A stretch of DNA of 64,000 bases from a virus (lineage: Duplodnaviria; Caudoviricetes): the IMG/VR virus record IMGVR_UViG_3300009129_001428, positions 1 through 64,000 of that record; one strand, given 5' to 3'. The notes below the pieces were generated by a model that was not told where the DNA came from, made no database searches, and saw nothing but the letters and a program-made list of their open reading frames with translations. The translations under genes and the position numbers were made by a program. Each line of letters opens with the position of its first letter. Positions within the stretch are counted from its first letter, which is position 1. Positions 30,249 to 62,542 of this stretch are shown piece by piece.

Positions 30249-30406
30249 TTGCAGTAATTCGGGTCTTCGGCTCGCTTTCTTCTCATGTACTCCCGTTTTT
30301 GTTTGCGCCTACGGTCTAAATCCGCATCGTCATATTTCTTTCGGGCGCGAGCCTGAGCCTCTTTGCCTTTTTTGCTAGTCAGATATTTTTTTTGCCTTTC
30401 GCTCAT
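30236..30406 (-). CDS. Small basic protein
   Basis: K/R-rich; start refined to MSERQKK. Confidence 0.5.
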
Positions 30407-32831
30407 TGGCCTTTTTTGCCACAATAATATTGTTTTTAACGTAAATCTCAAAATTTTTATCCTTTGACAATAAAAGAGGGGCTAGGGCCTTTTCTATTCT
30501 GTCTTCAATTAGCCTTTTGATGGGCCTTGCTCCATCTTTCTTTTCAAGAGCTTCCTGGCTTAGTAAAGAAAGCGCTTTGGGCATCACCTTTAATTTAATC
30601 TCTGATTCAAGCAAGCGAGCTTTAAGCTTCTCTATCTCAATCCCTAGAATCTGTTTAATATGTTTTTCTTCAAATGTATTAAAAACAATAATCTCATCGA
30701 GCCTGTTGATGAACTCTGGTTTAAAAAATGACTTTACTTCTTTCATTACTAAGTCTTTAGTGTCGGTACCTGCATCGAGGAAGCCCATGTTTTTCACTCC
30801 CTTTGCTGCGCTAGCTCCAATGTTACCAGTAAGAATAATGATGCAATTTGCAAAACTAGTTTCCCTCCCAAAATTATCAGTCAACTTTCCTTCTTCTAGA
30901 ATTTGTAGTAACATCTGACAGACGCTAGGGTCGGCCTTTTCTATTTCGTCGAATAAAATAACAGAATAAGGATTCTTCTTAACTTTTTCTGTGAGTTGGC
31001 CTCCCTCTTCATAGCCAATATACCCTGGGGAAGCTCCCACCATGCGAGTTGCAGAGATTTTTTCAGAATACTCTGACATGTCTAATTGAATTAGCTTACT
31101 GTCTCCCCCAAAGACTTCCCGCGCTAAGGTTTTAGCCAAAAAAGTCTTTCCTACCCCACTTGTCCCTAAGCAAAGAAACGCTCCAAAGGGTTTGTTTTTT
31201 TGTTTTAAGGGAGTGTGGCCTCTTAATAGGCAGTTATATACTTTATCTAATACTTCGTCCTGCCCGATAATAATCTTTCTTAGCCGCTTGTTCAGGCTAT
31301 GAAATCTCTCTTTGGACGCATTATATAAAGACTGCAGTGGCACTTTAGCCTTTTGTGAAACAGCTTCAAATACAGCATTCTCTTTAACTATTATTTTAGC
31401 CAGTTCTTTTTTGTTCGCCCATTCTATAAGTATCTCTTGATAACTTTCGAATAAATCCTGCTGTTTCTCCTTGATGGCCTCATTATTGGGATTTTCATCC
31501 TCCTCCATCATTAGCACCTCTATCTCCGCCTCAATATCTTTTGCGCTTTGGGGTCGTTGATAATGAAGAATCTTAGTCTTAGCTCCAGCTTGGTCCAGTA
31601 GGTCAATGGCCTTGTCGGGGAAGTTCTTGCCTCCCATGTACTTGTCCGACAGGTTAACGCAGAGTTCTAGCGCTCGGTCGCTATATTTAACCCCATGAAA
31701 ATCTTCGTAGTGTTGCTTGATCCCTTTTAATATTTCTAAAGCTTCTTTTTTTGATGGCTCCTCGATTTTAACTGCTTGGAAGCGCCTGTCCAAAGCCCCG
31801 TCTTTAGCTATTGTTTTTTTGTGTTCCTCATGCGTGGTCGCTCCAATACAAACAAGCTCTCCCCTCGCTAGGGCTGGCTTGAACATGTTTGCAGCATCCA
31901 TAGTGCCCTCTGCGCTTCCAGCGCCAACAATAGTATGAATTTCATCAATAAATAAAATGACATGGTCTACTTGCGAGACCTCTTTAATGATCTTTTTTAA
32001 GCGTTCCTCAAACTGGCCTCTGTATTTCGTACCCGCTATAAGCATCCCCAGATCTAGCCCATAAATAATTTTATTTAATAAATATTCTGGGGCCTCTCCT
32101 TGAACGATTTGTGCCGCTAAGCCCTCTACTATAGCGGTCTTGCCTACTCCTGGATCTCCAATTAGAATAGGATTGTTTTTCTTTTTCTGGCATAAAATCT
32201 CGCAAGTTTCTCTAATTTCCTCAGTCCTCCCTACAACTTTATCTATTTTTTTATTAACCACTAATTCATTAAAATTAACAGCAAATTTAGGTAGATACTC
32301 TACTCGTGCGCCAGGCTCAGGCAGGCTCTCTAGGGGATCTTCTCTTGCGCCCATATATGGCGACTCCATTGTTTCTGAATCTAAATCAGAAAAGTGCCTT
32401 TTCATTGCGGCGGCGATAAGCTTGGGGTCAATGCCTGTTTCGACGGCATACACATTGATTGGCGACTCAGTGTACTGGGAGAGCGCTAAAAATAAATGCT
32501 CTAGGCCTATGTACCCGTGCCCAAGCTTTTCTGCGCAGGCCGCAGCAATGGATAGAGATTGCTTGGCTGAATGAGAAAAAGCGAAAGTATCCGCCTCTTG
32601 TTGTGGAAAATTTTTATTCGCCTCAATTAAAGATAAGACATAAGTCTCTAGCGAACCCTCATCTATTTGAGATTTCTTCAGGATTCTTGCAATCGCTTCT
32701 GCTTTTATTGCGAGTACGCCATAGGCTAAATGATTAATGTCTATAACACTACTAGAGCTTTCTTTTGCTGTCTCTTTTGCTATTTCAATGGCTTCTTGCG
32801 CCCGAGGCGTAAAATTAGGTACTGTCTCCAT
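30375..32831 (-). CDS. clpC: ClpC/ClpA-type Hsp100 ATPase subunit of Clp protease
   Basis: N-domain NFTPRAQ/GLEHL, NBD1 GDPGVGKT + FIDEIH, short middle domain, NBD2 GTSGVGKT + FDEIEKA, ClpP-docking MGF loop, [15 protein letters not shown]; start refined to METVP. Confidence 0.93.
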
Positions 32832-32842
32832 ATTGTATGTAT

Positions 32843-32849
32843 TTACACT
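32843..32849 (-). promoter_or_regulatory. AGTGTAA motif upstream of clpC
   Basis: AGTGTAA, then 11 nt to ATG 32831. Confidence 0.55.
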
Positions 32850-35427
32850 ATTTAATATCTCCAAGTTTCATGTAGATTTGTTCGTCTATTACTGATATAT
32901 TATCTAAGAATAAAATGTCATCGCCCTTTCTCGCTGTAAAAACGACAATACTATCCTTTTTGGGGAGCTTATTCTTTTCTAAAAAGCGGTCTACCCTATT
33001 GTTTTGCTGCCATCTCCCATTAACCTGGCTTCTCCCATTTAAAAGCAGGCCATCGGTTGTTGCCGTTTCGTCTGAAACCGTAAACCTAATGTAGTCATTG
33101 CCATTGCGGCTCCTGCGTTTAATAACATCCTGCACTACTCCAATAAATTTTCCCCTATCTCTTTCTTCCATCTCTGTAGCATATAATAAATTATTTACAT
33201 CTGCATCTCTAAATACTTCTGTCAGTTTATATGTATAACTGTAACCTAAAAGCTTTCTCTCAAAATACCAATTAGCGAACTGTTCGTGGCTCTTATTTTG
33301 CAAATAAATCTTTTTATAAGCCCCATACTTCTTCTTGAATGTCCCAAATCTTTTTTCTGGCATTAATATTCTTCCGTCGTCTCCGAGCATCTTTGTCCTC
33401 TGTGTTTCTGCTATGCAATCAAGTAGTTGGTAGTTTTTCTTTTCTCCCATTTCTACAAAATTACGTTTCTCTCGGTCAGTTAAAATATTAAAAGCCTGCG
33501 CTTCTAATACCAGCAATGACCTGCTCCCGTTCGAACACGAAGACATCGCTCCTGCTTGAATTAAGGCAGACAAGGTTCCTATGTTTAAGCCCGCGCTCTT
33601 GGCTGTTAAAAATATATCATATTTATTTGACCTCTCAGAATCCCTAAAATCTTTTAAGTTTTGTAATGATTTTTCGCTAATACCTTTTATGCTATTCAGC
33701 CCATATCTTATATTTTTGCCTTCAATAGTAAAATCCATATCGGACTTGATTAAGTCTGGAGGTAAAAGTTTAATGTCAAAATAAGGCAGCTCTTGAGAGA
33801 TCTTGCATATCTCGTCATATGGAGAAGGCTCAAACTTGGTCATTTTTAATAATGACTGAAAAAATTGTAATGGATATTTGAACTTTAAATAGGTCGTCCA
33901 CGCCGCTAAAGTGGCATATGATATGGAGTGACTTTTATTAAAAGAGTAATTAGCGCTATCCTCTGCTACTTTCCATAGTACCTCTCCAGCCTCATGAGGG
34001 AAATTATTTTCTATAATCTTTTGTTCGATTTTGCTTTTCCATGTAGACATCTCTTCCACCTTTTTCTTCCCAACAATACGCCTAAGTTGTTCCGCTTCAT
34101 CGAGGCTGAAGCCAACTTTTACCGCCATTTTCATTAATTGCTCTTGATAAAGAGGAATCCCCCCTGTATACGAGAGAATGTCGTCAAAAAATGGATGCAC
34201 GCTTTGGGACTCTCCAGTAGAAGCGAATTTTACGAAGCTATCCATAAAGTCTAGTGCTCCTGGCCTTCCGATTGCTACTACTGCGCTCAGCATTTCTAGG
34301 TTGTTGGGCTTAACTTTCCGACAAACTTTAAAATTTGTATCTGCTTCTATCTGGAAAAGCCCATGCGGGCATCTTAGTCCATCCCTCAAGGGCTTAAAAA
34401 CCTCCTTCTTCTCAACAGAAATAGAGTCTACGTCTAAATCAAGAGTGTTACAGACATCATAGATCACGCTTAAAGTTCTTAAGCCTAATATATCAAATTT
34501 AACCATGAGTTCCGCAACCCAGTTCATGTCGTAGCCGCTAACTAGACCGCCGTCGTTCGTGCTTTGTAGCGGACAAATTTCTTCTAATTTTTGAAATGAA
34601 ATAGCAATGCCTGAGGGGTGTACTCCTGTATTCTTATTTAGCCCCTCAAGCTTCTTCGCTACTTTGAAGGTGGCGGGATTATCTGTTACCCAATCCTGAA
34701 ACTTCTCGCTCTCTTCGTTTGCTTCGTCGAGGGGCGCAACTTTACCAAATTTTTTAGGAATATAATCGCTCACAATGTTTACGTCTTGTTCCGAGTAGTT
34801 CCCCACGATCTTGCCGCACTCTTTAATGCAAAGTTTGCTGCTTAACGTATTTAGGGTTAAAATATTACAAGTCCTTGCTGGATACCTGCGCTCAATAAAA
34901 GAAACTACCTCCTGCCTGCGCTCATAAGAAATGTCATTGTCGATATCTGCTAGAAGCGACCCGTCAAGATAGGTTACTCCGTCTCCTTCTATTTTTCTTG
35001 CCCTGCTTTTGCTTACGAATCTTTCGAAATATAAATCATATTTTACTGGATCAATATTAGTGACTTCAATTAAATATAATACCAAAGATCCTGCGGCCGA
35101 GCCTCTCCCTGGCCCCGTAGGGATGTCGTTTTCCCCGCAAAAATTATGTACATCCCAGTTTAATAGTATGTAGTCTACAAAACCGAGGTCATCTAGGATG
35201 TCTAGCTCTTGCTTTGCTCTCTCGTAATAAGACTCTTTGTTTTTAAAATTATTAATACCCCGCTTCTTTATTCCTTCCCAGCAAAGCCTTTTCAAGAAAT
35301 CAAAGTTAGAAATCGTAGATTCCACGCCGAGCCTTTCGTAAAACCTGTCTTCTATTTTGATCTCTGGAAGCCTAACGCCAGGAGGGCAAGCGCCTTCATA
35401 ATGAGTAAAGCCTTCAAAGAAACTCAT
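32848..35427 (-). CDS. dnaE: DNA polymerase III alpha (DnaE) catalytic core lacking the PHP domain
   Basis: [48 protein letters not shown]-terminal OB fold; ATGA-coupled start 35427. Confidence 0.95.
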
Positions 35428-36062
35428 ATCTCTACCTCCCATATCTGCCTACGAAATATTTGATAGTTCATTTTTACATCGTAAATCGCATCGTGCAATT
35501 TCCTTTGGTCAAATTTAAGATCGTAAGATTTACATAAAGCGGTAATGCTGGCCTTCATTCCTCTTTGTCTAAATGAAGTTAGCTTGTACTGCCAAGACAA
35601 AAGCTTATCCTTGGGCGGTTTAATGTCTTTGTGAATAGCCTTCGCTATGCATAAGGTATCAATCAGATTGTTTAGGTATGAATAATCTGGCTTCTTGCCT
35701 AAGGCTCTACGAAAAATAGAATGAATATAGACATCAAAGCCTAGCAGATTGTGCCCGAGCTTAATATAGGCTGGGTCATAAAGGTATCTTTCCATGAATT
35801 CCAGTACTTTTTCTGGCTCAACCGCCTCCTTGTCGTATTTTTTTCTATTAAATCCTGTAATTTTCGCCGCATCTGCCGAGACCTCTAGGTTGTCCCACTT
35901 AATTAAAAAATCATATTCTTTTTTTACTTTGTCTCCTTCGCATAAAATAAACCCCAATTGCCAAGGCTTGTTGTTCTTTCTACATAGATTGAGGCTGCAG
36001 GTCTCAAAATCAAATACCATATATTTTTGTTTATTATTAAATCTAAGCAATTGTTCTTTCAT
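35424..36062 (-). CDS. DEDDh 3'-5' exonuclease (Pol III epsilon-like)
   Basis: VFDFET, GHNLLGFD, IDTL, HDAIYDV; leaderless start at 36062. Confidence 0.9.
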   Translation of the reverse strand: MKEQLLRFNNKQKYMVFDFETCSLNLCRKNNKPWQLGFILCEGDKVKKEYDFLIKWDNLEVSADAAKITGFNRKKYDKEAVEPEKVLEFMERYLYDPAYIKLGHNLLGFDVYIHSIFRRALGKKPDYSYLNNLIDTLCIAKAIHKDIKPPKDKLLSWQYKLTSFRQRGMKASITALCKSYDLKFDQRKLHDAIYDVKMNYQIFRRQIWEVEI

Positions 36063-41665: not shown

Positions 41666-42076
41666 TTATAGTAAAACTCCTATTTTTTTGAAATAATCTT
41701 TAGTCAACTCGTCAATAGAATATATCTCTATCAAGCGAATGTCATTCAAGTCGCAAAAGGACTGTTTATCTTGGTCTCTGCGCAGTTGGTTTATGTAGTT
41801 ATATTTATTGTTCCCGTGAAAAAAGGGAGTATATTCTGTGTGCTGCCTGCCTTGGACCTCTATTGCGATTTTCTTGTTTGCATTATAGAAATCTAAAGAC
41901 ATTTTTGTGCCTGCGACTGGGAACTCTTCAAAAACTACGTGTTTTTGCCAAAAGTCTTTTAAAAAATCTTTCGTAGCTTTTTGTATCTTGCTTCTGCTCT
42001 TTGCCTCCCAGTTGATGAGGTATTTCTTCGCCCTTGGGACACTGCGGGTTGCCCCCATCAGGGTTATGAACTTCAT
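41666..42076 (-). CDS. DUF559/Vsr-like endonuclease
   Basis: EEFP...LDFY...IAIEVQGRQH...D..K...C..N.I.LIEI. Confidence 0.8.
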   Translation of the reverse strand: MKFITLMGATRSVPRAKKYLINWEAKSRSKIQKATKDFLKDFWQKHVVFEEFPVAGTKMSLDFYNANKKIAIEVQGRQHTEYTPFFHGNNKYNYINQLRRDQDKQSFCDLNDIRLIEIYSIDELTKDYFKKIGVLL

Positions 42077-43167
42077 TTGATTGTTTTAACCTCTTCTTTA
42101 ATTAACTCGAGAAGAAACTGACAAAAATCTGTATTATTTTCTAAAAAATCTATGAGCTTCTGCTCTCCTTGAATCTTCTCAAAGAACTCGACCTTGGCTT
42201 TTTTGCATCTCTGCACAATTTCTTTATCTAGGGAAATCCATGCGCCCTTTTTTTCCAGAAAGCCCCATATGTAGCACATGTCTATTACTTCCTTTTCTAG
42301 CCAGACTGATTTACCGTTTGTCCTCCCGTACCGAATCGGGTATCTTACCGACGCTCCTGTCTTCTCGTTTACGCTTTTCCTAAAAACAATCTTACAGATA
42401 TGCCCAATTGGGCTCCCCTTGTCTTCTAGCTTTGCCGCAGTTGGGTTCTCAAATAAAATGTCACTATTATAACGATCTTGAAACTCAAGAATAAAATTCG
42501 CATAGTGTTTAATCGCATTGCCCCCTGCTTGTTTGGTCTTTGGCCCTCCTCTAGCCGCATATGGATTCGTTGCTACTTCTACTCTCACTTGAGAGGTTAG
42601 GATCATCATGTGGTTTAATTTAATAATAGGCAAGACCATCTTCTTTAAAAAGACAGATGTTATTAAGGCTCCTCCTGCGACTTGTTCGCTGTCTTCAAAA
42701 GGCTTTTCGTAGTCATTTTGTCTACATAGTGCATCAACGCTGTCTACGATAAACATATACTTCTTGTCGTCCTCATTTTCTTTAACCAACATTCTAATAA
42801 GTTCAAAAACTTTTTCAAAAACATTACAATCAAACTTGAAGAATCTTTCTTCGCTCGAGTCCACTCCCGAGCGAGCTACCATTTCATTACTGAGCCGACC
42901 CTCGCTCTTGATGTATACAACCATAGCTTTCTCGCCAAAGTGATCCTGAAAGTTCTTCGCTACGGCAAGAGCGCAAGACGTCTTTCCTCCTTCGTTTACT
43001 CCTGTAAAACGATGTACTCCCGCTGGAAATCCCCCTCCTAGGGACAAATCTAAATTAAGGCTGCCCGTTGGGATTTTATAGTCTAGCTCCTTATAGTCAT
43101 TATAATGGAAGTTCTTGTTATTCTTGTCGCTAAGAAACGCTTTTATTTGCTCTAATGTTCCACTCAT
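42073..43167 (-). CDS. recA: RecA/UvsX-like recombinase
   Basis: TGSLNLDLSLGGG, GVNEGGKT, IVDSVDAL, TSQVR, AGGNAIKHYA, GAW; start refined to MSGTL. Confidence 0.9.
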   Translation of the reverse strand: MSGTLEQIKAFLSDKNNKNFHYNDYKELDYKIPTGSLNLDLSLGGGFPAGVHRFTGVNEGGKTSCALAVAKNFQDHFGEKAMVVYIKSEGRLSNEMVARSGVDSSEERFFKFDCNVFEKVFELIRMLVKENEDDKKYMFIVDSVDALCRQNDYEKPFEDSEQVAGGALITSVFLKKMVLPIIKLNHMMILTSQVRVEVATNPYAARGGPKTKQAGGNAIKHYANFILEFQDRYNSDILFENPTAAKLEDKGSPIGHICKIVFRKSVNEKTGASVRYPIRYGRTNGKSVWLEKEVIDMCYIWGFLEKKGAWISLDKEIVQRCKKAKVEFFEKIQGEQKLIDFLENNTDFCQFLLELIKEEVKTIK

Positions 43168-43168
43168 T

Positions 43169-43510
43169 TTATTCTGATAAGAAATCGCTGATTGTTCTCT
43201 CTGTTTTTTTAATATTTGCATCTTGTCCTATTTTTTGTTCTTCTAGTTGTGGCGCGGAATACTTTGGCACCACATAGTTATAATCTAAATACTTTTTCTT
43301 TACAAACTTTTTCCAGTTGGGGCTAGCTAATATAGCTAGGCTATCAAACTTTTGATAAAAATCTACAACGCTCCAAAAGCATTGGTCTGGAAATTCCTTG
43401 AGGAATCTATTCAGAAGCGTCATTTCTTTTTTCCAGAAAGCCCTCTTATTGGCTTTTGGTTCATTAATATGCCTCTGTATTATTTGTCTTTTATTTAAGC
43501 ACTTCTTCAT
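43169..43510 (-). CDS. Hypothetical protein
   Basis: Start refined to MKKCL because the longer track ORF runs into the tmRNA; promoter TTGACT-17-TATCCT at 43554-43582. Confidence 0.6.
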   Translation of the reverse strand: MKKCLNKRQIIQRHINEPKANKRAFWKKEMTLLNRFLKEFPDQCFWSVVDFYQKFDSLAILASPNWKKFVKKKYLDYNYVVPKYSAPQLEEQKIGQDANIKKTERTISDFLSE

Positions 43511-43590: not shown

Positions 43591-44024
43591 TGGTGGAGAT
43601 GGCGGGAGTCGAACCCGCGTCCTTGTATAGATCCATAATCTATCTCGTTACAAGTTTGTCCTGCTTTTTTATGTTGTTGCAAACTCAACATTCAATTTCA
43701 TTTATTTGCCTCCGAATACTCAGCGGACTACAGTTTGTGAATATGAATAACTTTTTCTGTTTTCTGCAGATGTCGTCCTCGCATTCCTTTATCTGCGTCC
43801 CAGATGCAAGGGGTAGCTTATGCTACAGCAGCCAGCTGACGCGCAACACTCTTACGAGCAGCAACCTTGCGGGTTGCAACCTTCTTAGAAGGATTGAAGC
43901 GGTCAAGCAGACCATTTACAAGTTTAGATTTGGCACTTATATAAGCCTTGGGCTTTTTAAGGAGCCAGCCCACTCCTACTTGCAATAAAAAATTTAGCTA
44001 ACAAGTCGAATCCTTGTCATCCCC
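43591..44024 (-). ncRNA. ssrA: tmRNA, one-piece, 434 nt
   Basis: 5' GGGGATGACAAGGATTCGAC; 3' GCGGGTTCGACTCCCGCCATCTCCACCA; acceptor stem with G3-U70; pseudoknot 1 at 43949-43977; resume context TAAGT-GCC; tag frame 43934-43818. Confidence 0.96.
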
Positions 44025-44046
44025 ATATCAAATAACTAAAGTTAGT

Positions 44047-44053
44047 TTACACT
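44047..44053 (-). promoter_or_regulatory. AGTGTAA motif upstream of tmRNA
   Basis: 22 nt upstream of the mature 5' G. Confidence 0.55.
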
Positions 44054-44055
44054 AA

Positions 44056-44979
44056 TCACTTAGCTTTGTCAAGCTTGCGTTCTGTTTTAATTAGAAAAGG
44101 ATACTTGCTCACTTCTGTGCCCCCGCCCTCTCCCGCGTCGCTGATCCCGCTTTTAATTCCACTATCTTCTACCGCAATCTTTTTAAGGTTCTTTAGGGAG
44201 GGCGCTTCAATATTAGGGTCAATAGCCCATAGTACATCGTTTTCTTTCGCCCAGCGCTTCATCCGCCGAATTGGAACTGTTAAATTAAAACCTTCTCCTG
44301 CTCCGCGCACAAGCATACCCACATAGCGGCCGTCTGTAAGAAAAACCCCGCCTCCTGAGGAGCCTGGGAATGCGGTCACTGTAGTTTGGTCGTACTCTTG
44401 CTTGCCATGAATCCTGCCGACTTGCGACACAATGCCCGTGGTCATAGAGTTCGCTCCCATCTGGCCCAATAAAGACCCTACATGGAAAAGGCTTGTGCCA
44501 ATAGGGACAATAGCATCGTCTGCATTAAGATAAAATCGCGCGCTTTCCTTAGAGTAGTCCTTGGCTCGTACCATAAGCAATGCAAGATCATGGCCGTCAT
44601 CAGCATTAGAATATTTAATAACCATTGCATCCATTTTGATTTCGCCCACACGCCTTCCTTCAGAGACAAGTTCCTTTACTATCTGTGCGTCCTGAAACTC
44701 TACTACTTTACGAGGGCGCCCGCTCTCGTCAATTACATCTCGTACAGTTCGAAGGTTATCGACTACATGGGCCGCCGTCCACACAAAAGTGACCTCGCTC
44801 CCCTCGATTTCTCTAACGATCAACACCCCTGACCCCTCGGACTTGCTCCACTTCCCTTCGGATTTAATAGTAACCGAAATGTCCTGAAGAAAATTGGCAA
44901 CACGCTTTCTGTTCTTCAAGTCTTCTGAAAAGGTGGGGGTTGCAACTAAAAATGCCAAGAATAATGTAATGTACTTCAT
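44056..44979 (-). CDS. Secreted trypsin-like (S1) serine protease
   Basis: Signal peptide; GSGVLI, WTAAHVV (His), HDLALL (Asp), PGSSGGGVF (Ser). Confidence 0.88.
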   Translation of the reverse strand: MKYITLFLAFLVATPTFSEDLKNRKRVANFLQDISVTIKSEGKWSKSEGSGVLIVREIEGSEVTFVWTAAHVVDNLRTVRDVIDESGRPRKVVEFQDAQIVKELVSEGRRVGEIKMDAMVIKYSNADDGHDLALLMVRAKDYSKESARFYLNADDAIVPIGTSLFHVGSLLGQMGANSMTTGIVSQVGRIHGKQEYDQTTVTAFPGSSGGGVFLTDGRYVGMLVRGAGEGFNLTVPIRRMKRWAKENDVLWAIDPNIEAPSLKNLKKIAVEDSGIKSGISDAGEGGGTEVSKYPFLIKTERKLDKAK

Positions 44980-51118: not shown

Positions 51119-51121
51119 AAT

Positions 51122-51902: not shown

Positions 51903-51939
51903 TTTTTTATGGGTTTTATCCTGGGTTTGTGATGCATAA

Positions 51940-53705: not shown

Positions 53706-53714
53706 TTAAAAACA

Positions 53715-54320
53715 TTATATTTTATAATACCTATTTATGATTTGTGACAGCTGCTTATTTTCTTTCAGCTTATTGATTTGACCGCTATCCAAAAAGTTTT
53801 TGTAATCTGTCTCTCCCAGGTTTTTAGATACACTCCAGGTGTGCCAGTGTTGCGCTTCTGGCCCTGTCTTTTTTAGCTGCTTACACGCTTCCTTGACTCG
53901 CTTTATGTTAAATTGTTTATTAAGCTCCTTTTGCTTGTCGGTTGAGATGGGGGAGCCCGAAGCTTTTTCGATAGCTTGATATATTAATTCAAAATTGCCC
54001 ACAAAATTTTCATAAAATAGTAGCTCTGAATCTCTTGGGGGGAAATTATCTTTACTAATGACAGAGCCTCCGTGATTGAGATATTCTGTAACATGTTCTT
54101 CTAGAGCTTCATCTGTAATGCTCGCCTCAGAATATCTCAGAATTGAAGAAACAATTGAATTGTAAGGGTGACGAATGGTAACTATATAAAAGGCTTTAGG
54201 ATCAGCCTTTGTGAGATGATGATGTTTATGCACGGGCAAATCAACTGTATTGCTTAATAGGTTATATACTAAGGTCGACCCGCTTCTGATTGGGCTAAAC
54301 TGAATGATGTATTCTTTCAT
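53715..54320 (-). CDS. Sulfotransferase-like protein
   Basis: 5'-PSB-like PIRSGSTLVYN, 3'-PB-like IRHPYNSIVS, LFYE. Confidence 0.7.
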   Translation of the reverse strand: MKEYIIQFSPIRSGSTLVYNLLSNTVDLPVHKHHHLTKADPKAFYIVTIRHPYNSIVSSILRYSEASITDEALEEHVTEYLNHGGSVISKDNFPPRDSELLFYENFVGNFELIYQAIEKASGSPISTDKQKELNKQFNIKRVKEACKQLKKTGPEAQHWHTWSVSKNLGETDYKNFLDSGQINKLKENKQLSQIINRYYKI

Positions 54321-54322
54321 TT

Positions 54323-55345
54323 TTAAATTAAATTATTTAATTTATCTATTGGAATACTTATATTAAGAGCGCTATCGCATGGTAGTTCTACCGATGTATA
54401 GTCAAGCCCCATAATATCCTTCATGCTTTTATAGCAAGTGTTAACGTAGTCTTCTGCAAAAAATTCTATGATTTTTGTCCCCTTTTTGCAAAAAAGAAAG
54501 TTTTTTATCATCGCTCCGTGCGCCCCTACTATAATGCTTGCGTTACTAAAATGCTGTATATGACTTTTTAAGCCTTCGTTCCCAAATAAAATTTTAAAGC
54601 CTTGATTTTTTAAATTTGCTATAACCTGCTCTTCGTTTATTACAGTCCTTTGGGCTGTCTTGCGGGCAAGATATAATTTTACCTCAGGCGTCTCCGAGGT
54701 TTTTAGTTTAAAATATTTTTTTCTTAAATAATCAACCCCTCGTGCGGACATTAAAGAAGGGTAGGCGGTGCAAGATGGATAATATAAAACTGGTACATGG
54801 TATGCGTGGTTGGAAAATTTTCTATGCAAATCTAATTGCTCTATATCTTTCTGCTCAAATCCAAAAAGCTTAAAATGCAATTCTATATCTTTTACTGGTC
54901 CATGCAGCGGAGGAGTAATTAGCTTTTTAGACGCTAAATTTAAAGATTCTATTTTCTCCAGGTCTTGAAAGGTATCCCATAGGTGACCATAAACATAATG
55001 ATTAAAATATTGATGGCCATAAATGTAATTTATGCCTTCTTTTAGTTTGGTTATTTTTGTGGCAGAAAGTTTTTGTTTATGTATATCATTCCGCACTTGC
55101 ATGGGATGGTCTGGTCTTTTAAGGTCGTCTGAAAGGTTTTTCCAAAAAATATAATTAAAATTTGCTTCTAAAATAATATTCTTATCCGAATCAAAAATTG
55201 CTCCTTCTGGGCCAAGATATACATTCTCAAGCTTCAAAATATATTGCGGCCAATTTTTTTTATAAGATTCAGGGGTCGCGCCTCCAAAACAGTCTCCGTC
55301 TTTGGGTTTAATAATAAACCGCTCTGATATGCTTATAGAAGCCAT
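54323..55345 (-). CDS. Glycosyltransferase GT61 (DUF563)-like
   Basis: YGHLWD, LYLARK...R.VINEEQV, IIVGAHGAMIKNFLFC. Confidence 0.8.
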   Translation of the reverse strand: MASISISERFIIKPKDGDCFGGATPESYKKNWPQYILKLENVYLGPEGAIFDSDKNIILEANFNYIFWKNLSDDLKRPDHPMQVRNDIHKQKLSATKITKLKEGINYIYGHQYFNHYVYGHLWDTFQDLEKIESLNLASKKLITPPLHGPVKDIELHFKLFGFEQKDIEQLDLHRKFSNHAYHVPVLYYPSCTAYPSLMSARGVDYLRKKYFKLKTSETPEVKLYLARKTAQRTVINEEQVIANLKNQGFKILFGNEGLKSHIQHFSNASIIVGAHGAMIKNFLFCKKGTKIIEFFAEDYVNTCYKSMKDIMGLDYTSVELPCDSALNISIPIDKLNNLI

Positions 55346-55357
55346 AAGTTTAGATTT

Positions 55358-56047
55358 TTAAAAAATATATTTAAATTCGCATATATCTTCTTCATAAAAT
55401 TGTTCTATACGGCTTTTGTCTTTTTTGTTGTACATTTCTTTATAAGGAATTCTTTTTTCGCTGTGATGTTTGTGATGAGGCAAGGTAAGTGTTGATAAAT
55501 TTAGCTCTTGTTGTATTTTATTAAAATCTTCCTGTAAGTTTTCAAATCTTCCCACAAATATATTGGGGTATAATGTTCCATCGACATTACTTTCTAAGTA
55601 TTTTTTATTTAGGTGGGGTATATATTCTACCTGCTTAAATCTAAGGTGAAATGTATCAAACCCTGTTATGTTTGGATGAGAAAAATTATGATTCTCACGG
55701 TTTTTATAGCATTCTTCTGCTAGCAAAGTGTAATCTGAAAAAGACACAATTTTCAAACCCTCCCTTTTTCGTATAGCTAGCGAGTGCAAGTATAAAGAGA
55801 CAAACCTATCCCAAGGATTTCGCACAAACGCAATTAATTTAAAGTGTGGATTCGCCTCAATCGTACGAGCTAGTTGGGAGCCTCGAATAGGAAAAAATAC
55901 ATCCTTAATTTTTTTAGCTTCTTCGGCGTGAGTGTCATGAAAATTCCATGCGTATCCTCCTTCTAGCCTTGAGAAACTATCTTCCATACTCTCTCCTGCC
56001 GTTTTAGGTATATGAATAAAAATAAACCTATGTTTCTTTGAAATCAT
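55358..56047 (-). CDS. Sulfotransferase family 2 protein
   Basis: FIHIPKTAGES, FVRNPWDRFVSLY, FVGRFENLQEDF. Confidence 0.9.
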   Translation of the reverse strand: MISKKHRFIFIHIPKTAGESMEDSFSRLEGGYAWNFHDTHAEEAKKIKDVFFPIRGSQLARTIEANPHFKLIAFVRNPWDRFVSLYLHSLAIRKREGLKIVSFSDYTLLAEECYKNRENHNFSHPNITGFDTFHLRFKQVEYIPHLNKKYLESNVDGTLYPNIFVGRFENLQEDFNKIQQELNLSTLTLPHHKHHSEKRIPYKEMYNKKDKSRIEQFYEEDICEFKYIF

Positions 56048-56048
56048 A

Positions 56049-56882
56049 TTAAGTGTCCGTTTTATATTTAATAATATTTGATTCTGGACAAAAAAACTTT
56101 GCCCTCCCTTCTGGAATTACAGTTTTCCCTTTTGTTTTGTAAAGAGTTATTGCTTCGGAAAACCCTGATACCGATGCAATAAAAAAATCGCTCTCTATAC
56201 ATGTTTGAAACTGCAGAAGAGTGCTCGTGGCGGATTTTTCACTAGGAATATATTTTATAATGCCATTTTTGTAATTAAAAAATTTATATACATCTACAGC
56301 TTCACATTTTTCATTTACATACTGACCTGTCCAGTCTGCGTCAGAATATATGTAAAGTAAGAAGTTTTGAATATTATAAGTCTCTAGTAAATAGTCTAAA
56401 GCATTTTTAAAATATATGTCTGGCAATAATCTATCTTCCATGGGATGTTCACTACCTTCCCATTTTCTATTACATGCAATATCTCCCCTCCTGATAGACA
56501 TAGAAATTGTTGTTACGTCTTTAGAGCATTCTTGCTGTACCCGCAAGACTCTGTTTTTATAACAAGACAAAAGATAAGGTCTCGTTAAGGAAAAGTCTTC
56601 ACACACGTTGTCGCAGCTATCCTGAGGGTGATATTTAACTCTTTCTATCTGTTTGGGAAATGACTTTTCTAATTCTCCGCGCATCTCCGAGCAGTTTGGT
56701 AAGCCTAATGCAGCCTCTAATAAGCCTCGCTGCCCTAATCCATGCCCTAATTGCATTAAAGAAGGAATAAAGCACTGATTATCGCTGATCGCTTGATTTA
56801 AGCCACTGTTATAGCTAAAGAGCGTGTGGCCTATGCCCGCCCCTCGCACTATATTATCATAAAATAAATATTTTGTTTTCAT
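56049..56882 (-). CDS. Fucosyltransferase-like GT-B protein (GT11/GT23-like)
   Basis: GAGIGH, SIRRGDI, IYSD, SDFFIASVSGFS; start refined to MKTKYL. Confidence 0.6.
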   Translation of the reverse strand: MKTKYLFYDNIVRGAGIGHTLFSYNSGLNQAISDNQCFIPSLMQLGHGLGQRGLLEAALGLPNCSEMRGELEKSFPKQIERVKYHPQDSCDNVCEDFSLTRPYLLSCYKNRVLRVQQECSKDVTTISMSIRRGDIACNRKWEGSEHPMEDRLLPDIYFKNALDYLLETYNIQNFLLYIYSDADWTGQYVNEKCEAVDVYKFFNYKNGIIKYIPSEKSATSTLLQFQTCIESDFFIASVSGFSEAITLYKTKGKTVIPEGRAKFFCPESNIIKYKTDT

Positions 56883-56886
56883 AATA

Positions 56887-57864
56887 CTACGCAGACATGT
56901 CTCTAAAGCCTTTTCGCCCTTCAGAATCCCAAAAGAAATAAGGGATACCAAAATATTGGGCTGCACTTTCTGTGAAAGATGTCCCGCTGCAATATATAAA
57001 ATTAGATTTTCCAATAATTAACCAGTCTTTAATTGGTAAAAGAGGATAGGTACTAGACATTTTTTTTACTGCCTCCGACGAGGAATGAAGGAACCCTCTA
57101 TTTTCGCAGCATTCGCACTTAGGGTTATTCATCGTCTTAATATCTAAATGTGGGCAAAGTTTTTGAATGGAATGACAAATATACTGCGTTATTCCTGGAT
57201 CATCGCTTGTTACGAAAACGTTTTTGTTTTTGGAATATTTATCATACGTTTCGGGAAAATTAAAAATAAATTCATCTAAATAATGAATTCCTTCCCAGCC
57301 TGCATCAGAAAATGCGCGAAATTGAACTACTGAATATTCTGATTTTAAATCAACTGGACAAAATAAAGGTAAGCTCTTCCAGTTTTCAGACAGAGAGGGG
57401 AAAAGTTCATGAAATAATTTTTGGGAAAGTTTTTGTGATTGAAGTTCTGCAAAGCAATCAAAGTCTTGCTGTAATTCTTTTTTATAAATCGGATTTTGAA
57501 ATATCTCATAAAGCATAGGCTTGCCTCCACCACATTCAATTGCTTCGTCAGTAATTGAATTAAAATCTGTTTGTTGAAAATCAATATCAATACTTAACAT
57601 ATTCGGTTCTCTACACGATTCTTTAAAAAAAGATCTTTCCTCATCAGGGGTGTTTATATCGTTTAATGCGCTCGTAGGCTGGGGTAGATTAGGGAAATTT
57701 TTAACATTAAATGGGGAGTTAAATGCGAAATTTATAAGCGTGTTGTTTAATATGAATTGCCTATTCAATATTTTACTTAATCGATACCAGCCTATCAATG
57801 CACGAAGCTGATTTCCAAAACCATACCGAACCTTGTCGCCAAAGACTAAATATTTTTGTTTCAT
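56887..57864 (-). CDS. Fucosyltransferase-like GT-B protein (GT23/O-FucT-like)
   Basis: YGFGNQL, VQFR, VFVTSDD, DWLII......SGTSF. Confidence 0.65.
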   Translation of the reverse strand: MKQKYLVFGDKVRYGFGNQLRALIGWYRLSKILNRQFILNNTLINFAFNSPFNVKNFPNLPQPTSALNDINTPDEERSFFKESCREPNMLSIDIDFQQTDFNSITDEAIECGGGKPMLYEIFQNPIYKKELQQDFDCFAELQSQKLSQKLFHELFPSLSENWKSLPLFCPVDLKSEYSVVQFRAFSDAGWEGIHYLDEFIFNFPETYDKYSKNKNVFVTSDDPGITQYICHSIQKLCPHLDIKTMNNPKCECCENRGFLHSSSEAVKKMSSTYPLLPIKDWLIIGKSNFIYCSGTSFTESAAQYFGIPYFFWDSEGRKGFRDMSA

Positions 57865-57939
57865 ATATTATTCAAAATAATTTTTAACATCATTAATATG
57901 AGGACACCATTGAGAGGCTTCGTTACAATACCATTGCTT

Positions 57940-58974
57940 TTATTTTTCAAAATATTGCTCGAGCCTATTCTCGTGAATTGTAAAATCGTGCTGCTCCCAA
58001 TGTTTTAAGTAATTATTTTCGCAAAGAACTTGTTCTGCTGATAAGTTCTGGCAACCTATTTTATTTAGAGACTCTTCTATTATCTCTTTAAATTTATTCC
58101 TGTACTTAATTGCTTGCTCGATATGCATTAATCTAATTTTTTCTCTATCCCATTTCCTTGAGCACGCTTCCTCCACAGCGTCTTTAACCGCATCTTCAGA
58201 GTCTTCGCAAATAATGGAGTTCTCCGAATTATACCAAACATCTCTTCCTCCCGAAGATTTAGTTGAGACTACAGGTGTGCCGCTCATTAGGTATTCCGAA
58301 GAAGCTCTGCAGGCCCCTTCTTCGGGAGATAAAATTAACCCACAGTTAGAACTTCCACATAGGATGGAAATTTCTTCTTTGTTTAAAAATTCATGCGGGT
58401 TATTTAAGCACTTGGGCAACTCCACTACATTTTCTGTCCAGGTTTTATCTCCAGCGGCCAGCGCTAGTCTTTTAATTTTTGCAGCCAAATAGTGCCGCTT
58501 GAATTCAACCGCTCGAGCTAGATAAAATGCGTCATATTTTTTAGGCAATTCCTGTATGGAAAAATCATTCTCCTCTAGCCAACAATTGTTGTTTATAACT
58601 TCTCCACGGAAACCAAAGCGAGCTCCGTTAGCTAATTCTTCTGGGCTATTATAAAGCACAAAGAACTGGCTTCTGTTTAACTCTAGAGCATCAAACATCG
58701 CATCCGCTTGTCGGGCTATGTATTTTGAAAAATTCCAGCCGCACGAAACAAAAAAGAGATCTGATTCCCTGAAGCTTTTGGCATAATCCTTCAGCCACCT
58801 GTAGTTATGCGTTAGGTTTGAGATGAAAAATATCCTTGCTTCTTTTGATTTTGACAGGCATAGAAATGGGAAGTCTGGATTTGGCCATGTGTAAATTGGG
58901 TGCGGGCCAAGCCAAACCCAGTGGTCTTCTTCGCGACACTTTTGGTCGCTATTTTTTTCAATATAGCGGGTCAT
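57940..58974 (-). CDS. Glycosyltransferase GT4-like (GT-B)
   Basis: YLARAVEFKRH, EEGACRASSEYLMSGTPVVST. Confidence 0.75.
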   Translation of the reverse strand: MTRYIEKNSDQKCREEDHWVWLGPHPIYTWPNPDFPFLCLSKSKEARIFFISNLTHNYRWLKDYAKSFRESDLFFVSCGWNFSKYIARQADAMFDALELNRSQFFVLYNSPEELANGARFGFRGEVINNNCWLEENDFSIQELPKKYDAFYLARAVEFKRHYLAAKIKRLALAAGDKTWTENVVELPKCLNNPHEFLNKEEISILCGSSNCGLILSPEEGACRASSEYLMSGTPVVSTKSSGGRDVWYNSENSIICEDSEDAVKDAVEEACSRKWDREKIRLMHIEQAIKYRNKFKEIIEESLNKIGCQNLSAEQVLCENNYLKHWEQHDFTIHENRLEQYFEK

Positions 58975-59935
58975 AATACTCCCTTATGTTTTGCACAAAA
59001 TTTTCTCCTGAACATTTCTTGTATGCTTCTAATCCTTTTTGTCTTAGTTCGTGTTCTTGGCTTTCGCTAATCGAAGATAAAGTCTTTCGTAGCTTATTGT
59101 AATCTTTCTCGGGAACTTTTATAATGCAGTCGTCCCAGTTAGTGCCATTGATTTCGGGGAACATCATGTTGTCCGCAAGTATTACAGGGATCGCGCCGCT
59201 AGCTAAGCTCTCTAGGAAACGAATTGAATTCGGACCAGAACCGCTTGGGCATAAAGAAAAACGTGAACGAGTTAAGGCCTCTCTATAAAACTTAGACTTC
59301 TCTTTGTTTAAGTATTCTTGAACTCGAGAGGCTTTTTGTTTTTTAACCTGTTTCTGATATACATCCAAGTCAAATTGCCACCCTTTTCTTTCTATTACTA
59401 TTGCGTTACGCGGATGCTTGTCTTGAAATATTTTTCTCCTAATGTCTGAGACATAAATTTTTTCATTGTAGGAACCCACAAAAGAATACCATAAGTCTTT
59501 TTCTTTCTTGGGCTCTCCAATATTTACTGGCCATAGAAATATTGGTTCTATTTTTATTCCTTCAATCTCTTGACTATCTGAATCGTGAAAATAATCTTTG
59601 GTCGTTAGGCCGCGCCCTTTAACCATGTGGGGTGCGAATATAGTTTTTATACCAATCTTTTTTGCAATGGGAATAATTTGATAAAACTTGTCGTGCTGGC
59701 ATACTGTAAATGCATTTTTAAAAGCATAATCATTAGCGAACGCTTCAACCTTATTTCTGATATAGCCATAGTCTTGCGCGGTTCCAAAGCAAGCTTTATC
59801 AATAAAAGTTGACCAAGCAAAAGAAAAAAAAGTAATGTCTTTGTCTAAGGGATTTAGCTCTAGAAGTTCATGAGCCTTCTGTTCTGTTAGTACAGGTCTC
59901 TGCCAGTCGATAAAGTCCTCATGAATCAGCTTCAC
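58958..59935 (-). CDS. Exostosin (GT47) family glycosyltransferase
   Basis: YSFVGS, RRKIF, SRFSLCPSGSGPNSIRFLESLASGAIPVILAD. Confidence 0.9.
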   Translation of the reverse strand: MKLIHEDFIDWQRPVLTEQKAHELLELNPLDKDITFFSFAWSTFIDKACFGTAQDYGYIRNKVEAFANDYAFKNAFTVCQHDKFYQIIPIAKKIGIKTIFAPHMVKGRGLTTKDYFHDSDSQEIEGIKIEPIFLWPVNIGEPKKEKDLWYSFVGSYNEKIYVSDIRRKIFQDKHPRNAIVIERKGWQFDLDVYQKQVKKQKASRVQEYLNKEKSKFYREALTRSRFSLCPSGSGPNSIRFLESLASGAIPVILADNMMFPEINGTNWDDCIIKVPEKDYNKLRKTLSSISESQEHELRQKGLEAYKKCSGENFVQNIREYYDPLY

Positions 59936-60432
59936 TAAACAAGATATAAATTTGATACATAAAAATGAGGTTTATTTACTCCAATCAGTTTAATTAATCT
60001 AGCTTTCGTCTCGTCAAATTCAGTATTATAAAAAGCCTTTAAAGGGATAGCTACCTCGCATTCTTCTCCTGATGTAATTCCACTAAGCTGAGAAATTTCC
60101 ACTTCCTCCGAAGTCCTTTCTTTTTCATCTATAAAAGCCACCCTTAAGCCTACACCATCTTCCTGGTAGAAAGTAAACTTTACCTCGGAATACTGCCTAA
60201 TGTCCTGAGAGGCCCACTGGGCTTTATCTAGGGCTAAGACCCCGCAAAACCAATCGTCTTCCGACTCTGTATACTTGAGTGCGAGTCGAGGTACTCCAGC
60301 TATGTTCTCCACGGGGACCTTTTCTGGCTCACTTGTCTCTAAATTACAAGACCAGCTTGCATCTACTACTTTCTTTAGGAACACCCTAGGAGAAAAGATG
60401 TTTAACATTTTAGTTTTATTTGAAATTAACAT
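59935..60432 (-). CDS. Carbohydrate-binding (CBM11/galactose-binding-like) domain protein
   Basis: Beta-rich; DIRQYSEVKFTF, LRVAFID, EVAIPLKAF, FYVSNLYLV. Confidence 0.6.
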   Translation of the reverse strand: MLISNKTKMLNIFSPRVFLKKVVDASWSCNLETSEPEKVPVENIAGVPRLALKYTESEDDWFCGVLALDKAQWASQDIRQYSEVKFTFYQEDGVGLRVAFIDEKERTSEEVEISQLSGITSGEECEVAIPLKAFYNTEFDETKARLIKLIGVNKPHFYVSNLYLV

Positions 60433-61841
60433 AGCTCTAATAATCCGTCGTCATTTATGTACGATATTTTTGTAATATTTTTATGTTTATGTTTGTTCGT
60501 TGAGAAATAATCAAAAGGCTCAAGTCCTTCCGACCGATACGTTTCTCCTTTATAATCGTTCTTGTTTAGGCTTTTTAAAGAAATAAATTTAATTTTTTCA
60601 AAGCCATTTAGAAGATGCATGCCAATGTTTTTTAACGTCAACTCTTGGTCTAGTCTTTGGGTTTTATTTCCTTTATGCATTATTGGATAATAATTACAAT
60701 CAAATAAATCCTCTCTGATCTGCTTGTTGCTTTTTACTAAATCTATAATTGCAATATCACAATCCATGTGCCTATCTATAAAATGAGCAAGCTTTTTTAT
60801 ATTAAATTTAGATCCTGTGTCATTGTAAATAATTACTCCAGTTTTCTTTTCTACAGATAGTAGGTTTATATCGGTTAGGCCGTTAGCTTTAGCCTCCGAA
60901 AATAAACTTTGGTTATACTGGCCTCCTATTGTTAAGCTATTTATATCCCACTCCTTCGGGTGATCAATATGATAAACATCCTTTATGTTTTCGGTAGTCG
61001 TATGCAGTTTCTGGCAAATGCCTGAAAGAGCTGTGTCCCAATGGGGCTCACCTATAATAAAATCAGGAATATATTCTCTAATGCTCAGGTATGTTTTCTT
61101 TTTAAACGCAAATGCATCTCTGCCTGTGGTATAAGGCCATGACTCCCCCTTAAATAAATCCTCTAATGATTTGGCAGAGGGACAATCTCTCCTGATGTAC
61201 TCTACTATGTCTGAGTTGTCTTCTAGTAGGTTGTTATAAAAATCATTAGTTATGGGGCAATCTAGATTAGAATATACAATATAATCACTGTCTGAGGCGA
61301 GCTCTGCTGCGGCGTCCAACATGTCCTTGAGAAATAAAAAGTCTTTAGTATGCTGGATTGTATTGGCCGCATTCCGAATTAGTATTCTAGTCTTCCATCC
61401 AGGCTTTTTAAGGGCTACGCTTGAACATCCCAAAAGCTGCACGCAACTGGATGACTTGGCCGCCTGCTCTATGGACTCAAGCGTTAAAGAGGTCCTGTGG
61501 TATAGTGACTGGTTTTTTTGGGCTGGAATAAATAAATTAACTACATGAATAATTTTAGAAGCCTTTTTAGAAGAAGAATCTATCTTGAGGCTGGGCGGAG
61601 CGACGTCATCACGAGGGATTTCTAGTTTGTGGCTGCGTTTTGCAGTAGCGCTCACCTCATCTTCAGAATAATTCAATTTCTTGCCAGTGGATATGGCAAC
61701 CCCTTGAATTTTCGAGCGAAGAACTTTGTCTCTATTGATGATGGTCTCATCAATAATGTTATTTATATTAAAAAGGAAGCTATGCCACCAGTAAGCCGCC
61801 GCATTTAAAATGCGCGATACGAACCTCCTCGCTGCCCGCAT
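60426..61841 (-). CDS. Putative glycosyltransferase-like protein
   Basis: DYIVYSNLDC, GRDAFAF, IGEPHWD, YHIDH; lies in the glycan cluster. Confidence 0.45.
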   Translation of the reverse strand: MRAARRFVSRILNAAAYWWHSFLFNINNIIDETIINRDKVLRSKIQGVAISTGKKLNYSEDEVSATAKRSHKLEIPRDDVAPPSLKIDSSSKKASKIIHVVNLFIPAQKNQSLYHRTSLTLESIEQAAKSSSCVQLLGCSSVALKKPGWKTRILIRNAANTIQHTKDFLFLKDMLDAAAELASDSDYIVYSNLDCPITNDFYNNLLEDNSDIVEYIRRDCPSAKSLEDLFKGESWPYTTGRDAFAFKKKTYLSIREYIPDFIIGEPHWDTALSGICQKLHTTTENIKDVYHIDHPKEWDINSLTIGGQYNQSLFSEAKANGLTDINLLSVEKKTGVIIYNDTGSKFNIKKLAHFIDRHMDCDIAIIDLVKSNKQIREDLFDCNYYPIMHKGNKTQRLDQELTLKNIGMHLLNGFEKIKFISLKSLNKNDYKGETYRSEGLEPFDYFSTNKHKHKNITKISYINDDGLLELC

Positions 61842-61843
61842 TA

Positions 61844-62542
61844 TTATAGCTCCCCTCTGATTTCATCAATCAGGCCAAGGTTGAGCGCCTCATCCGAAGA
61901 AATCCACCAATCTTTTCTATCCCAATTTCTTTTTATCTTAAGCCTGGTTAGGTTAGATCTTTTTTCAAAAATATCTAGAATGCGAGCTTCTATCCTCTTT
62001 ATCCACGCAGTATGATCCTCAATTTCAAATGTCTTACCCATGATCCCAAAGGCAGCTCTATGGATCATCATCCATGCTTGATGACCCATCCATCGGCGGT
62101 CGCCTGCCTGCAGGAGTATCCCTGCCATAGAAGCCGCCATTCCTAGTGAACCCGTAGTTACTTTATGCCCTCGGGCCCGCAGCTCCTGTATAAAATCAAA
62201 CAAAACAAACCCATCAACAATGGAGCCTCCGCCTGACGAAAAAATAATTTCTATCTCGCAATTTGGGTGCCTCCTTGACCACTGTGTAAGTTTTTGCATG
62301 CAATCATTAACATAGGTTTTGTCTACTACAGTATTAAACCTATAAATCATATTCTCTTTGTCGTCAGCCTTTTCCCTCCTCCATTCCTGGTCCTTTTTCT
62401 CTGCTTCAAGATTTTTTAATTTGGCAGAGCTCTCGGCGCTAAGTGTTTCTGCCTCTAGCTTTCGGATCTCCGCTTCGATTTTACGAGTTTCTGCTTCGAT
62501 TTTACGAAGTTCTTCTTTGCTTTTTTTCTTTTCTTCGCCCAT
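61844..62542 (-). CDS. clpP: ClpP-family (S14) protease with N-terminal coiled coil
   Basis: IFSSGGGSIVDG, GMAASMA (Ser), MIHRA (His), KDWWISSDEALNLGLIDEI (Asp). Confidence 0.9.
   Translation of the reverse strand: MGEEKKKSKEELRKIEAETRKIEAEIRKLEAETLSAESSAKLKNLEAEKKDQEWRREKADDKENMIYRFNTVVDKTYVNDCMQKLTQWSRRHPNCEIEIIFSSGGGSIVDGFVLFDFIQELRARGHKVTTGSLGMAASMAGILLQAGDRRWMGHQAWMMIHRAAFGIMGKTFEIEDHTAWIKRIEARILDIFEKRSNLTRLKIKRNWDRKDWWISSDEALNLGLIDEIRGEL

Follow-up and report, generated by a model that had tools for sequence, protein, structure and literature searches.

A tmRNA, a ClpC-type unfoldase and a ClpP-like protease in a large uncultured tailed phage may represent three separate modules

The window analysed here, a stretch of 64,000 nucleotides from a virus of the Caudoviricetes (positions 1 to 64,000 of the IMG/VR record IMGVR_UViG_3300009129_001428), encodes a one-piece transfer-messenger RNA (tmRNA), a ClpC-type unfoldase and a ClpP-like serine protease, and on balance we slightly favour the view that these represent three separate modules and not one self-contained machine. 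The original prediction, made from the sequence alone, had proposed that the phage may run its own ribosome-rescue and degradation circuit with these parts. The parts themselves proved to be real, but the circuit was not borne out, failing on two of the grounds that the prediction itself had named as refuting it, because the three genes are distributed independently among the related phages and the ClpP-like protein appears to lack both the docking pocket and the gating loops of a canonical ClpP.

The ClpP-like protein (232 amino acids; 61844..62542, minus strand) matches the Pfam family CLP_protease with 99 bits from model position 21 onward, whereas model positions 1-20 have no match. Its residues S138, H161 and D211 align with the triad S97/H122/D171 of Escherichia coli ClpP and are invariant in 65 of 65 family members, and the protein is predicted to be a catalytically intact protease with the Ser/His/Asp triad that had been read from the sequence. 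It stays below the cut-off of the canonical ClpP model TIGR00493 (72.1 against 308.6 bits) and also below that of the best ClpP subfamily model of NCBIfam (86.7 against 228 bits). The pocket of E. coli ClpP that receives the IGF/LGF loop comprises L23, L48, F49, A52, Y60, Y62, F82, I90, M92, F112, L114 and L189 (bioRxiv 10.1101/820209). We aligned the ClpP-like protein and 64 relatives with E. coli ClpP and, as a control, with the ClpP of a huge-phage fragment (G008), the alignment being anchored by the motifs SSGGG (versus NSPGG), GMAASM and MIH. At the pocket positions, in the same order, the ClpP-like protein shows I, T, Q, R, E, I, E, G, L, W, G and R; eight of the 12 are polar, charged or glycine (T, Q, R, E, E, G, G, R), and 64-65 of the 65 members share the substitutions, whereas the control retains L23, L48, F49, I90 and L114 together with a canonical N-terminus. 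In an AlphaFold2 model (pLDDT 85.9), a single charged helix (residues 9-58) takes the place of the axial gating loops, and the core has the ClpP fold with a TM-score of ~0.85 to ClpP structures (Foldseek search of the model). Alignment and model together indicate a non-canonical ClpP homologue, in which the docking pocket and the gating loops at the N-terminus that ClpA, ClpX and ClpC rely on have apparently been lost.

Related viral contigs are numerous in IMG/VR, and three of them (G001-G003) are genomes of 158-178 kb with 91-100% completeness. The ClpP-like protein has homologues of 40-78% identity at no fewer than 80 loci, on at least 76 related contigs. G001, G002 and G003 carry a tmRNA and the ClpP-like gene without ClpC, and G011 and G012 (79-83% complete) carry the ClpP-like gene without either tmRNA or ClpC; the ClpP-like gene thus occurs without ClpC in five of the five relatives of 79-100% completeness, and the tmRNA is present in three of these five. 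All three genes are found in fragments belonging to the window's own clade (G004, L002/L069, L003/L070 and L005/L068). Two short fragments of this clade (G009, G010) and G005 (68% complete) carry tmRNA and ClpC, the ClpP-like gene not being seen in them, and in G006 and G007 (53-55% complete) ClpC is present and the two other genes were not seen. The huge-phage fragment G008 combines tmRNA and ClpC with a canonical ClpP (175 bits). The ClpP-like protein, present without ClpC, is therefore independent of it, and since close ClpC homologues (58-73% identity) are confined to the small clade of the window, ClpC was added at the level of that clade. In the relatives, tmRNA, unfoldase and peptidase were found neither to be inherited together nor to be linked: the ClpP-like gene is family-wide, ClpC is clade-specific and tied to the alpha subunit of DNA polymerase III (PolIII alpha), and the tmRNA occurs in three of the five near-complete genomes that lack ClpC.

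The gene neighbourhoods differ accordingly for each of the three genes. The tmRNA lies within 10 kb of the ClpP-like gene in 13 of 76 loci, and ~12% would be expected by chance in a genome of ~170 kb, which places their proximity near chance level. The tmRNA is located at the edge of a replication/recombination block, with a RecA gene adjacent to it not only in the window but also in L107, L118 and L122. The gene directly before it encodes a trypsin-like protease in the window as in L070; G001 has this order with one small open reading frame (ORF) in between. In ~17 loci the ClpP-like gene has the trypsin-like protease and a tRNA array as neighbours, and in the window's clade it stands next to ribonucleotide reductase (RNR).

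The closest cultured homologues of the ClpP-like protein are gp118 of mycobacteriophage Gaia (232 amino acids) and gp87 of mycobacteriophage Lumos, which are 35-39% identical over the full length; the match to Gaia gp118 (38%) includes the N-terminal helix. Judging from these alignments, the protein appears to belong to a phage-specific clade with Gaia gp118 and Lumos gp87, and to count among the core genes of the wider family of phages. Gaia gp118 is flanked by genes for a RepA-like helicase and a DnaQ-like exonuclease, and Lumos gp87 beside an RNA ligase and a polynucleotide kinase. Gaia gp118 resembles the window protein in its intact triad, in the non-hydrophobic residues at the pocket positions and in its neighbours from replication or nucleotide metabolism, and other phages of clusters L/X also have such a ClpP-like protease; unlike the window phage, however, these are actinophages of 70-90 kb without ClpC, and the function of the ClpP-like protein is a prediction in both groups. 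We know of no tmRNA in cluster L/X mycobacteriophages. A search of the literature on phage 'ClpP-like protease' found nothing useful.

It is a serious possibility, to which we give somewhat less than an even chance, that this phage family matures its proheads with the ClpP-like protein, which would then be unrelated to tmRNA and ClpC; these two would act as in the modular reading. Its best PHROG is phrog_94, 'head maturation protease' (9e-52, positions 14-249 of a profile of 622 positions), and the ClpP-related head-maturation model NF045542 of NCBIfam scores as high as the ClpP subfamily (86.4 against 86.7 bits), although its own cut-off of 120 bits is not reached. A highly conserved core gene, with 52-78% identity in at least 76 contigs, would fit such a role, and so would the position of the gene in part of the family: in 11 loci it stands two genes after the portal gene (in the order TerL, portal, a protein of 394-436 amino acids, ClpP-like and, later, a protein of 509 amino acids), and in ~24 loci it comes after PhoH and ~5 genes before TerL. 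Among the 39 ORFs of the structural region of G001, a Pfam search recognised no other prohead protease, which is suggestive but not decisive; PHROGs gave nothing for the head genes of this genome. The proven head protease of Streptococcus phage Sfi21 (orf221) is likewise without a docking pocket and shares the S14 fold and the intact nucleophile and histidine, but the identity to it is 27% over 133 amino acids of the core, and the acid of the triad is Asp in the window protein and Glu in that of Sfi21. Moreover, RNR, glycosyltransferase and replication genes surround it in the window and in the clade of the window, outside the head module. Two genes upstream of it in G004, encoding 677 and 446 amino acids, are not portal homologues. 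Gaia gp118 and Lumos gp87 are encoded in the early or replication part of the genome, and their phages build heads with a scaffold and no protease; no head protease was seen in the head module of either phage, that of Lumos containing a MuF-like protein and a scaffold.

The second protein, ClpC, is a class I Hsp100 unfoldase of 818 amino acids (30375..32831, minus strand). Its longest ORF spans 30375-32864 with a TTG start, and the start was assigned to the ATG at 32831. It matches the Pfam domains AAA_2, AAA_lid_9, AAA and ClpB_D2-small, and PHROG 4871 at 1e-226; the Pfam match to Clp_N is weak (31.8 bits). ClpC aligns end to end and without interruption with ClpC of Bacillus subtilis (3j3s; 596 bits, residues 17-800 to 5-783), and ClpB alignments break at the M domain, whereas the ClpC alignment does not. 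As in ClpC of B. subtilis and Staphylococcus aureus (MecA-ClpC-ClpP; PDB 3j3s, 9gi1), the order of domains is N domain, D1 ring, short M domain and D2 ring, with Walker A and B motifs in both rings, pore loops (KYRG in D1, GYIGY in D2) and a hydrophobic-Gly-Phe loop, MGF at residues 682-684, which aligns with VGF of B. subtilis. With its two rings and its docking loop the protein is therefore of the ClpC type and not a ClpB, as the original prediction had recognised. It differs from the cellular proteins in its coupling to PolIII alpha and in that no MecA or McsB adaptor was seen, and the best cellular matches, at 37-46% identity, come from many phyla; the search for a cellular donor was abandoned for this reason, and neither donor nor host is named here. 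In a tblastn search against GenBank phages, ClpC mostly found bacterial contigs filed under phage names (~40% identity). In G010 (IMGVR_UViG_3300006802_000177, 26848-29267), two overlapping ORFs (224 and 604 amino acids) make up ClpC, owing to either a frameshift or an assembly error.

The clpC gene directly follows that of PolIII alpha (DnaE-like; 32848..35442, minus strand; Pfam DNA_pol3_alpha), whose stop codon overlaps the heptamer AGTGTAA preceding clpC. In 23 related loci (range L001-L027) the two genes stand in this order, 0-101 nt apart, with identity falling to 33% for ClpC and to 47-60% for PolIII alpha. No other association of the three genes comes close to this one in strength, and such a deeply conserved pair suggests a replication-linked role of the unfoldase, which is encoded within a block of genes for DnaB, RecA, an exonuclease and a PD-(D/E)XK nuclease. 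Clp unfoldases act in the replication of the phages Mu, lambda and P1, in which ClpX remodels MuA and ClpA activates P1 RepA. ClpC might likewise be a remodelling motor linked to replication that works without any ClpP and perhaps strips off or unfolds proteins of host or phage at the replisome, its MGF loop being inherited and little used; the persistence of the PolIII alpha-ClpC pair at such low ClpC identity and its place in the replication block would be in line with this, yet we regard it as rather unlikely. Of 65 phage ClpC homologues, 55 retain the loop ([MVLI]GF), including lineages in which no phage ClpP was found, while its flanks are free to vary, which argues for selection on ClpP docking, and the homologues without the loop are the most distant, ClpB-like ones.

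The tmRNA (43591..44024, minus strand) was detected by ARAGORN and with Rfam RF00023, to which it scores 116.7 bits (gathering score 47) over model positions 1-374, i.e. the full length, and its presence is thus as originally described. In its acceptor stem the 5' sequence GGGGAUG pairs with CAUCUCC, which is followed by ACCA, so that the CCA is encoded, and G3:U70 provides the alanine identity pair; the sequence of the T-arm is GGGTTCGACTCCC. In the Rfam alignment the resume codon is GCC at 43934-43932, the model's resume position, and it opens a tag ORF of 38 codons (43934-43821) with the stop codon TAA at 43820-43818. The encoded tag, AKSKLVNGLLDRFNPSKKVATRKVAARKSVARQLAAVA, has 38 residues, is basic and ends in LAAVA, a hydrophobic, ALAA-like C-terminus; the tag printed by ARAGORN (ECEDD...) was rejected, being in the wrong frame and place relative to the Rfam resume position. 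A sigma-70-like promoter (TTGACA-17 nt-TAAACT; 44044..44072, minus strand; 10 of 12 matches in a promoter scan) ends 20 nt before the mature 5' end. In bacterial trans-translation, tmRNA acts with SmpB, and the ssrA tag is degraded by ClpXP and ClpAP or, in Gram-positives, by ClpCP. The window tmRNA resembles the bacterial system in its one-piece form, alanine acceptor identity, resume codon and ALAA-like tag end, and the phage resembles bacteria also in having a class I Hsp100 protein with a ClpP-docking loop. In contrast to model bacteria, with tags of 10-14 residues, its tag is long and strongly basic, the ClpP homologue appears to be without pocket and gating loops, the genes are carried by a phage and passed on independently of one another, and SmpB is missing: family profile searches of the ORFs of the window found neither SmpB nor ClpS, MecA or SspB, and SmpB (PF01668) was also absent from G001, G002, G003 and G004, these searches covering the window and four relatives and the remainder of the phage's own genome lying outside. 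The absence of a visible SmpB had been noted in the original prediction as well. A hidden tmRNA was also considered between the adjacent trypsin-like and ClpP-like genes of one sublineage and was discarded, since Rfam gave only tRNA arrays and manA motifs there. The manA RNA motifs (RF01745) occur on L071, L073, L076 and L126; tRNA genes lie a few kb from the trypsin-like/ClpP-like pair in seven of the seven scanned contigs (L071, L073, L076, L126, L105, L106 and L119), in most of them as arrays of 5-10.

The frame of the basic tag is intact, with conservative residue changes, in four or five relatives (including L068, L070, G009 and G010). In the wider family the tag is acidic, 31-35 residues long and conserved as A[ND]xx[IV]DMAPSLAEADAILAKFGWxEExxxAA (L081, L107, L112, L118, L120, L122 and G001-G003), and it also has an ALAA-like end. 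The basic tag may keep an LLx[KR]F-like core of the acidic form (GLLDRFNP versus AILAKFGW). Conserved tags of this length are unusual, and to judge by their alignment the tag peptides appear clearly to be under selection. The ClpC-bearing clade and G005 have a basic tag, the relatives without ClpC an acidic one; a correlation of tag charge with the presence of ClpC was considered but not adopted, as it rests on one or two evolutionary events.

The original prediction had pointed to a shared motif, AGTGTAA, upstream of tmRNA and clpC, and to a degenerate ATGTAT before clpP. The positions are correct: AGTGTAA precedes clpC at 32849-32843, 11 nt ahead of the ATG, and the tmRNA at 44053-44047, where it overlaps the -10 element of the promoter, and ATGTAT lies 10 nt before the ATG of clpP, at which AGTGTAA itself is missing. 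The motif is, however, not a mark of these three genes. With 10 copies against 7.0 +/- 2.9 expected, it is not over-represented in the window, but eight of its eight coding-strand copies (starting at 4336, 8810, 11321, 26572, 32849, 41663, 44053 and 47877, minus strand) are situated between genes, in spacers that account for 12% of the sequence. These copies lie 1-8 nt after a stop codon and mostly 9-12 nt before the next ATG, without a Shine-Dalgarno sequence, and at least six unrelated genes are preceded by them. AGTGTAA is thus a real but general intergenic motif, and since it stands in the spacers before several unrelated genes it has no specific tie to tmRNA, ClpC and ClpP. Because it overlaps the -10 element of the tmRNA promoter and sits close to start codons, it may be a -10 element driving leaderless or near-leaderless mRNAs.

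Under the reading of three separate modules, the tmRNA would be a trait of the lineage, transcribed from its own sigma-70-type promoter, charged by the alanyl-tRNA synthetase of the host and delivered by host SmpB, which would be needed for ribosome rescue because the phage encodes no SmpB in the regions searched. It would free stalled ribosomes during infection, and the long, clade-conserved tag with its LAAVA end would route the products to Clp-type proteases with a canonical ClpP. The tagged products may be degraded by Clp proteases of the host, possibly including phage ClpC on host ClpP. ClpC would be a member of the replication operon whose MGF loop suits the pocket of a canonical ClpP, and it would most likely dock on host ClpP, because the phage's own ClpP-like protein appears to have lost the pocket, and so redirect host proteolysis; otherwise, it might remodel proteins of the replisome. 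The ClpP-like protein would work without an AAA+ partner, either cutting independently in the cytoplasm or maturing the head. A further combination, in which the long private tag is an address read by phage ClpC on host ClpP, so that the products of ribosomes stalled by anti-phage nucleases of the host are removed along a route under phage control, while the PolIII alpha-ClpC pair separately reflects an unrecognised role of a Clp unfoldase in the phage replisome, strikes us as a long shot.

Several observations weigh against separate modules. In the closest relatives (L069/L070) the trypsin-like protease, tmRNA, c22 (a small ORF described below) and the ClpP-like gene lie within 2.5 kb, and L070 shows the compact order of a 544-amino acid protein, trypsin-like protease, tmRNA, c22, ClpP-like, RNR and RecA, with 384 nt between tmRNA and the ClpP-like gene. 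Every long-enough contig of the ClpC-bearing clade (G004, L002/L069, L003/L070, L005/L068) carries all three genes, and a functional link at the level of this clade is possible because of the compact order and the co-occurrence; comparison of the gene orders suggests that in the window, rearrangement and a glycan island separate genes that are compact in L070. The unrelated huge-phage fragment G008 has brought together ClpC, a bona fide ClpP and tmRNA. Moreover, the absence of a gene is not provable from fragmentary contigs, the pocket argument consists of a sequence alignment at ~28% identity combined with contacts from E. coli, and ClpC and the ClpP-like protein may meet through a non-canonical interface, e.g., via the N-terminal helix. 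The same clustering, the intact state of all three parts, the conservation of the long tag within the clade and the presence of the same three functions in the lineage of G008 could be taken to support a self-contained circuit, in which the tmRNA tags, phage ClpC reads the private tag and a ring of the phage ClpP-like protein degrades the product. We nevertheless judge such a circuit very improbable: the ClpP-like protein is apparently without pocket and gating loops, five near-complete relatives have it without ClpC, ClpC is linked to PolIII alpha and not to tmRNA or ClpP, neither SmpB nor an adaptor was found, the distance of tmRNA to the ClpP-like gene is near random and AGTGTAA is a general motif that is missing at clpP.

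The surroundings of the three genes assign the window to the replication and auxiliary genes of a large uncultured phage, tailed and siphovirus-like, because of its gene content and of the structural genes seen in the relative G001 (100% complete), where TerL, a gene of portal size and tail and cement proteins resembling those of lambda are encoded. The long ORFs of the window are all on the minus strand and GC is 34-41%; its genes include DNA ligase, a RuvB-like ATPase, a KDO-8-P synthase-like protein, a sugar epimerase, PolIII alpha, a DnaQ-like exonuclease, a PD-(D/E)XK nuclease, DnaB, RecA, the beta subunit of RNR and a glycosyltransferase/sulfotransferase island (12-16 kb). No close GenBank phage was found by megablast of 14.6 kb of the window against GenBank phages. 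The RecA-like recombinase (42073..43221, minus strand; Pfam RecA) lies downstream of the tmRNA, and a secreted trypsin/HtrA-like serine protease (44056..44979, minus strand; Pfam Trypsin_2) directly upstream of it; the latter has a signal peptide, MKYITLFLAFLVATPTFS, and no PDZ domain, and its match to DegP/HtrA (NCBIfam) is weak. The small divergent ORF c22 (103 amino acids; 62598..62909, plus strand) has no family match and overlaps the 3' end of a GT2 gene by 38 nt. It is kept upstream of the ClpP-like gene in L066-L070 (54-65% identity), stands beside the trypsin-like gene in L104, L123, L129 and L144 and is also present in G001 (in total at least nine loci and G001). On the other side of the ClpP-like gene, the start of a gene for 471 amino acids (60426-61841, minus strand) overlaps the clpP-like stop codon; its sole homologue is in L066, and an identity as capsid or scaffold protein was dropped, as it has no match in Pfam, PHROG, NCBIfam or in a tblastn search of GenBank phages. 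The glycosyltransferase/sulfotransferase island (47886-61841), located between RNR and the ClpP-like gene, includes DUF6734, GT47/exostosin-like, GT1, GT2 and nucleotide-diphospho-sugar transferase genes, and the closest relatives are without it or differ there.

Other large phages also have a tmRNA of their own, some of them together with Clp components or with SmpB. Bacillus phage G carries a tmRNA, ClpP and ClpX side by side, and a distinct protease for head maturation (PMC12484599); both tmRNA and SmpB are known from huge phages (PMC7162821), and mycobacteriophages of the Bxz1 group encode a tmRNA (PMC4131195). The window phage is like these phages in being large and in having its own tmRNA and Clp components. 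In contrast to them, it has ClpC instead of ClpX, in a replication operon and apart from the ClpP homologue, which is apparently non-canonical, and it is without SmpB in the regions searched.

Phage tmRNAs and phage Clp components were already known, and the present case separates genes that are merely co-resident from genes that are linked. A phage ClpP homologue should not be presumed to be the partner of a phage Clp ATPase, as the docking pocket can be read from the sequence and here appears to be gone. The PolIII alpha-ClpC pair, by comparison, is a firm linkage, which directs attention to replication or to the removal of host proteins, and away from the tmRNA. The long clade-conserved tags offer a concrete handle on whether phage tmRNAs do more than recycle ribosomes. 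Most worth following in this family are therefore the PolIII alpha-ClpC pair, the clade of ClpP-like proteins that seem to have lost the pocket and the long conserved tags.

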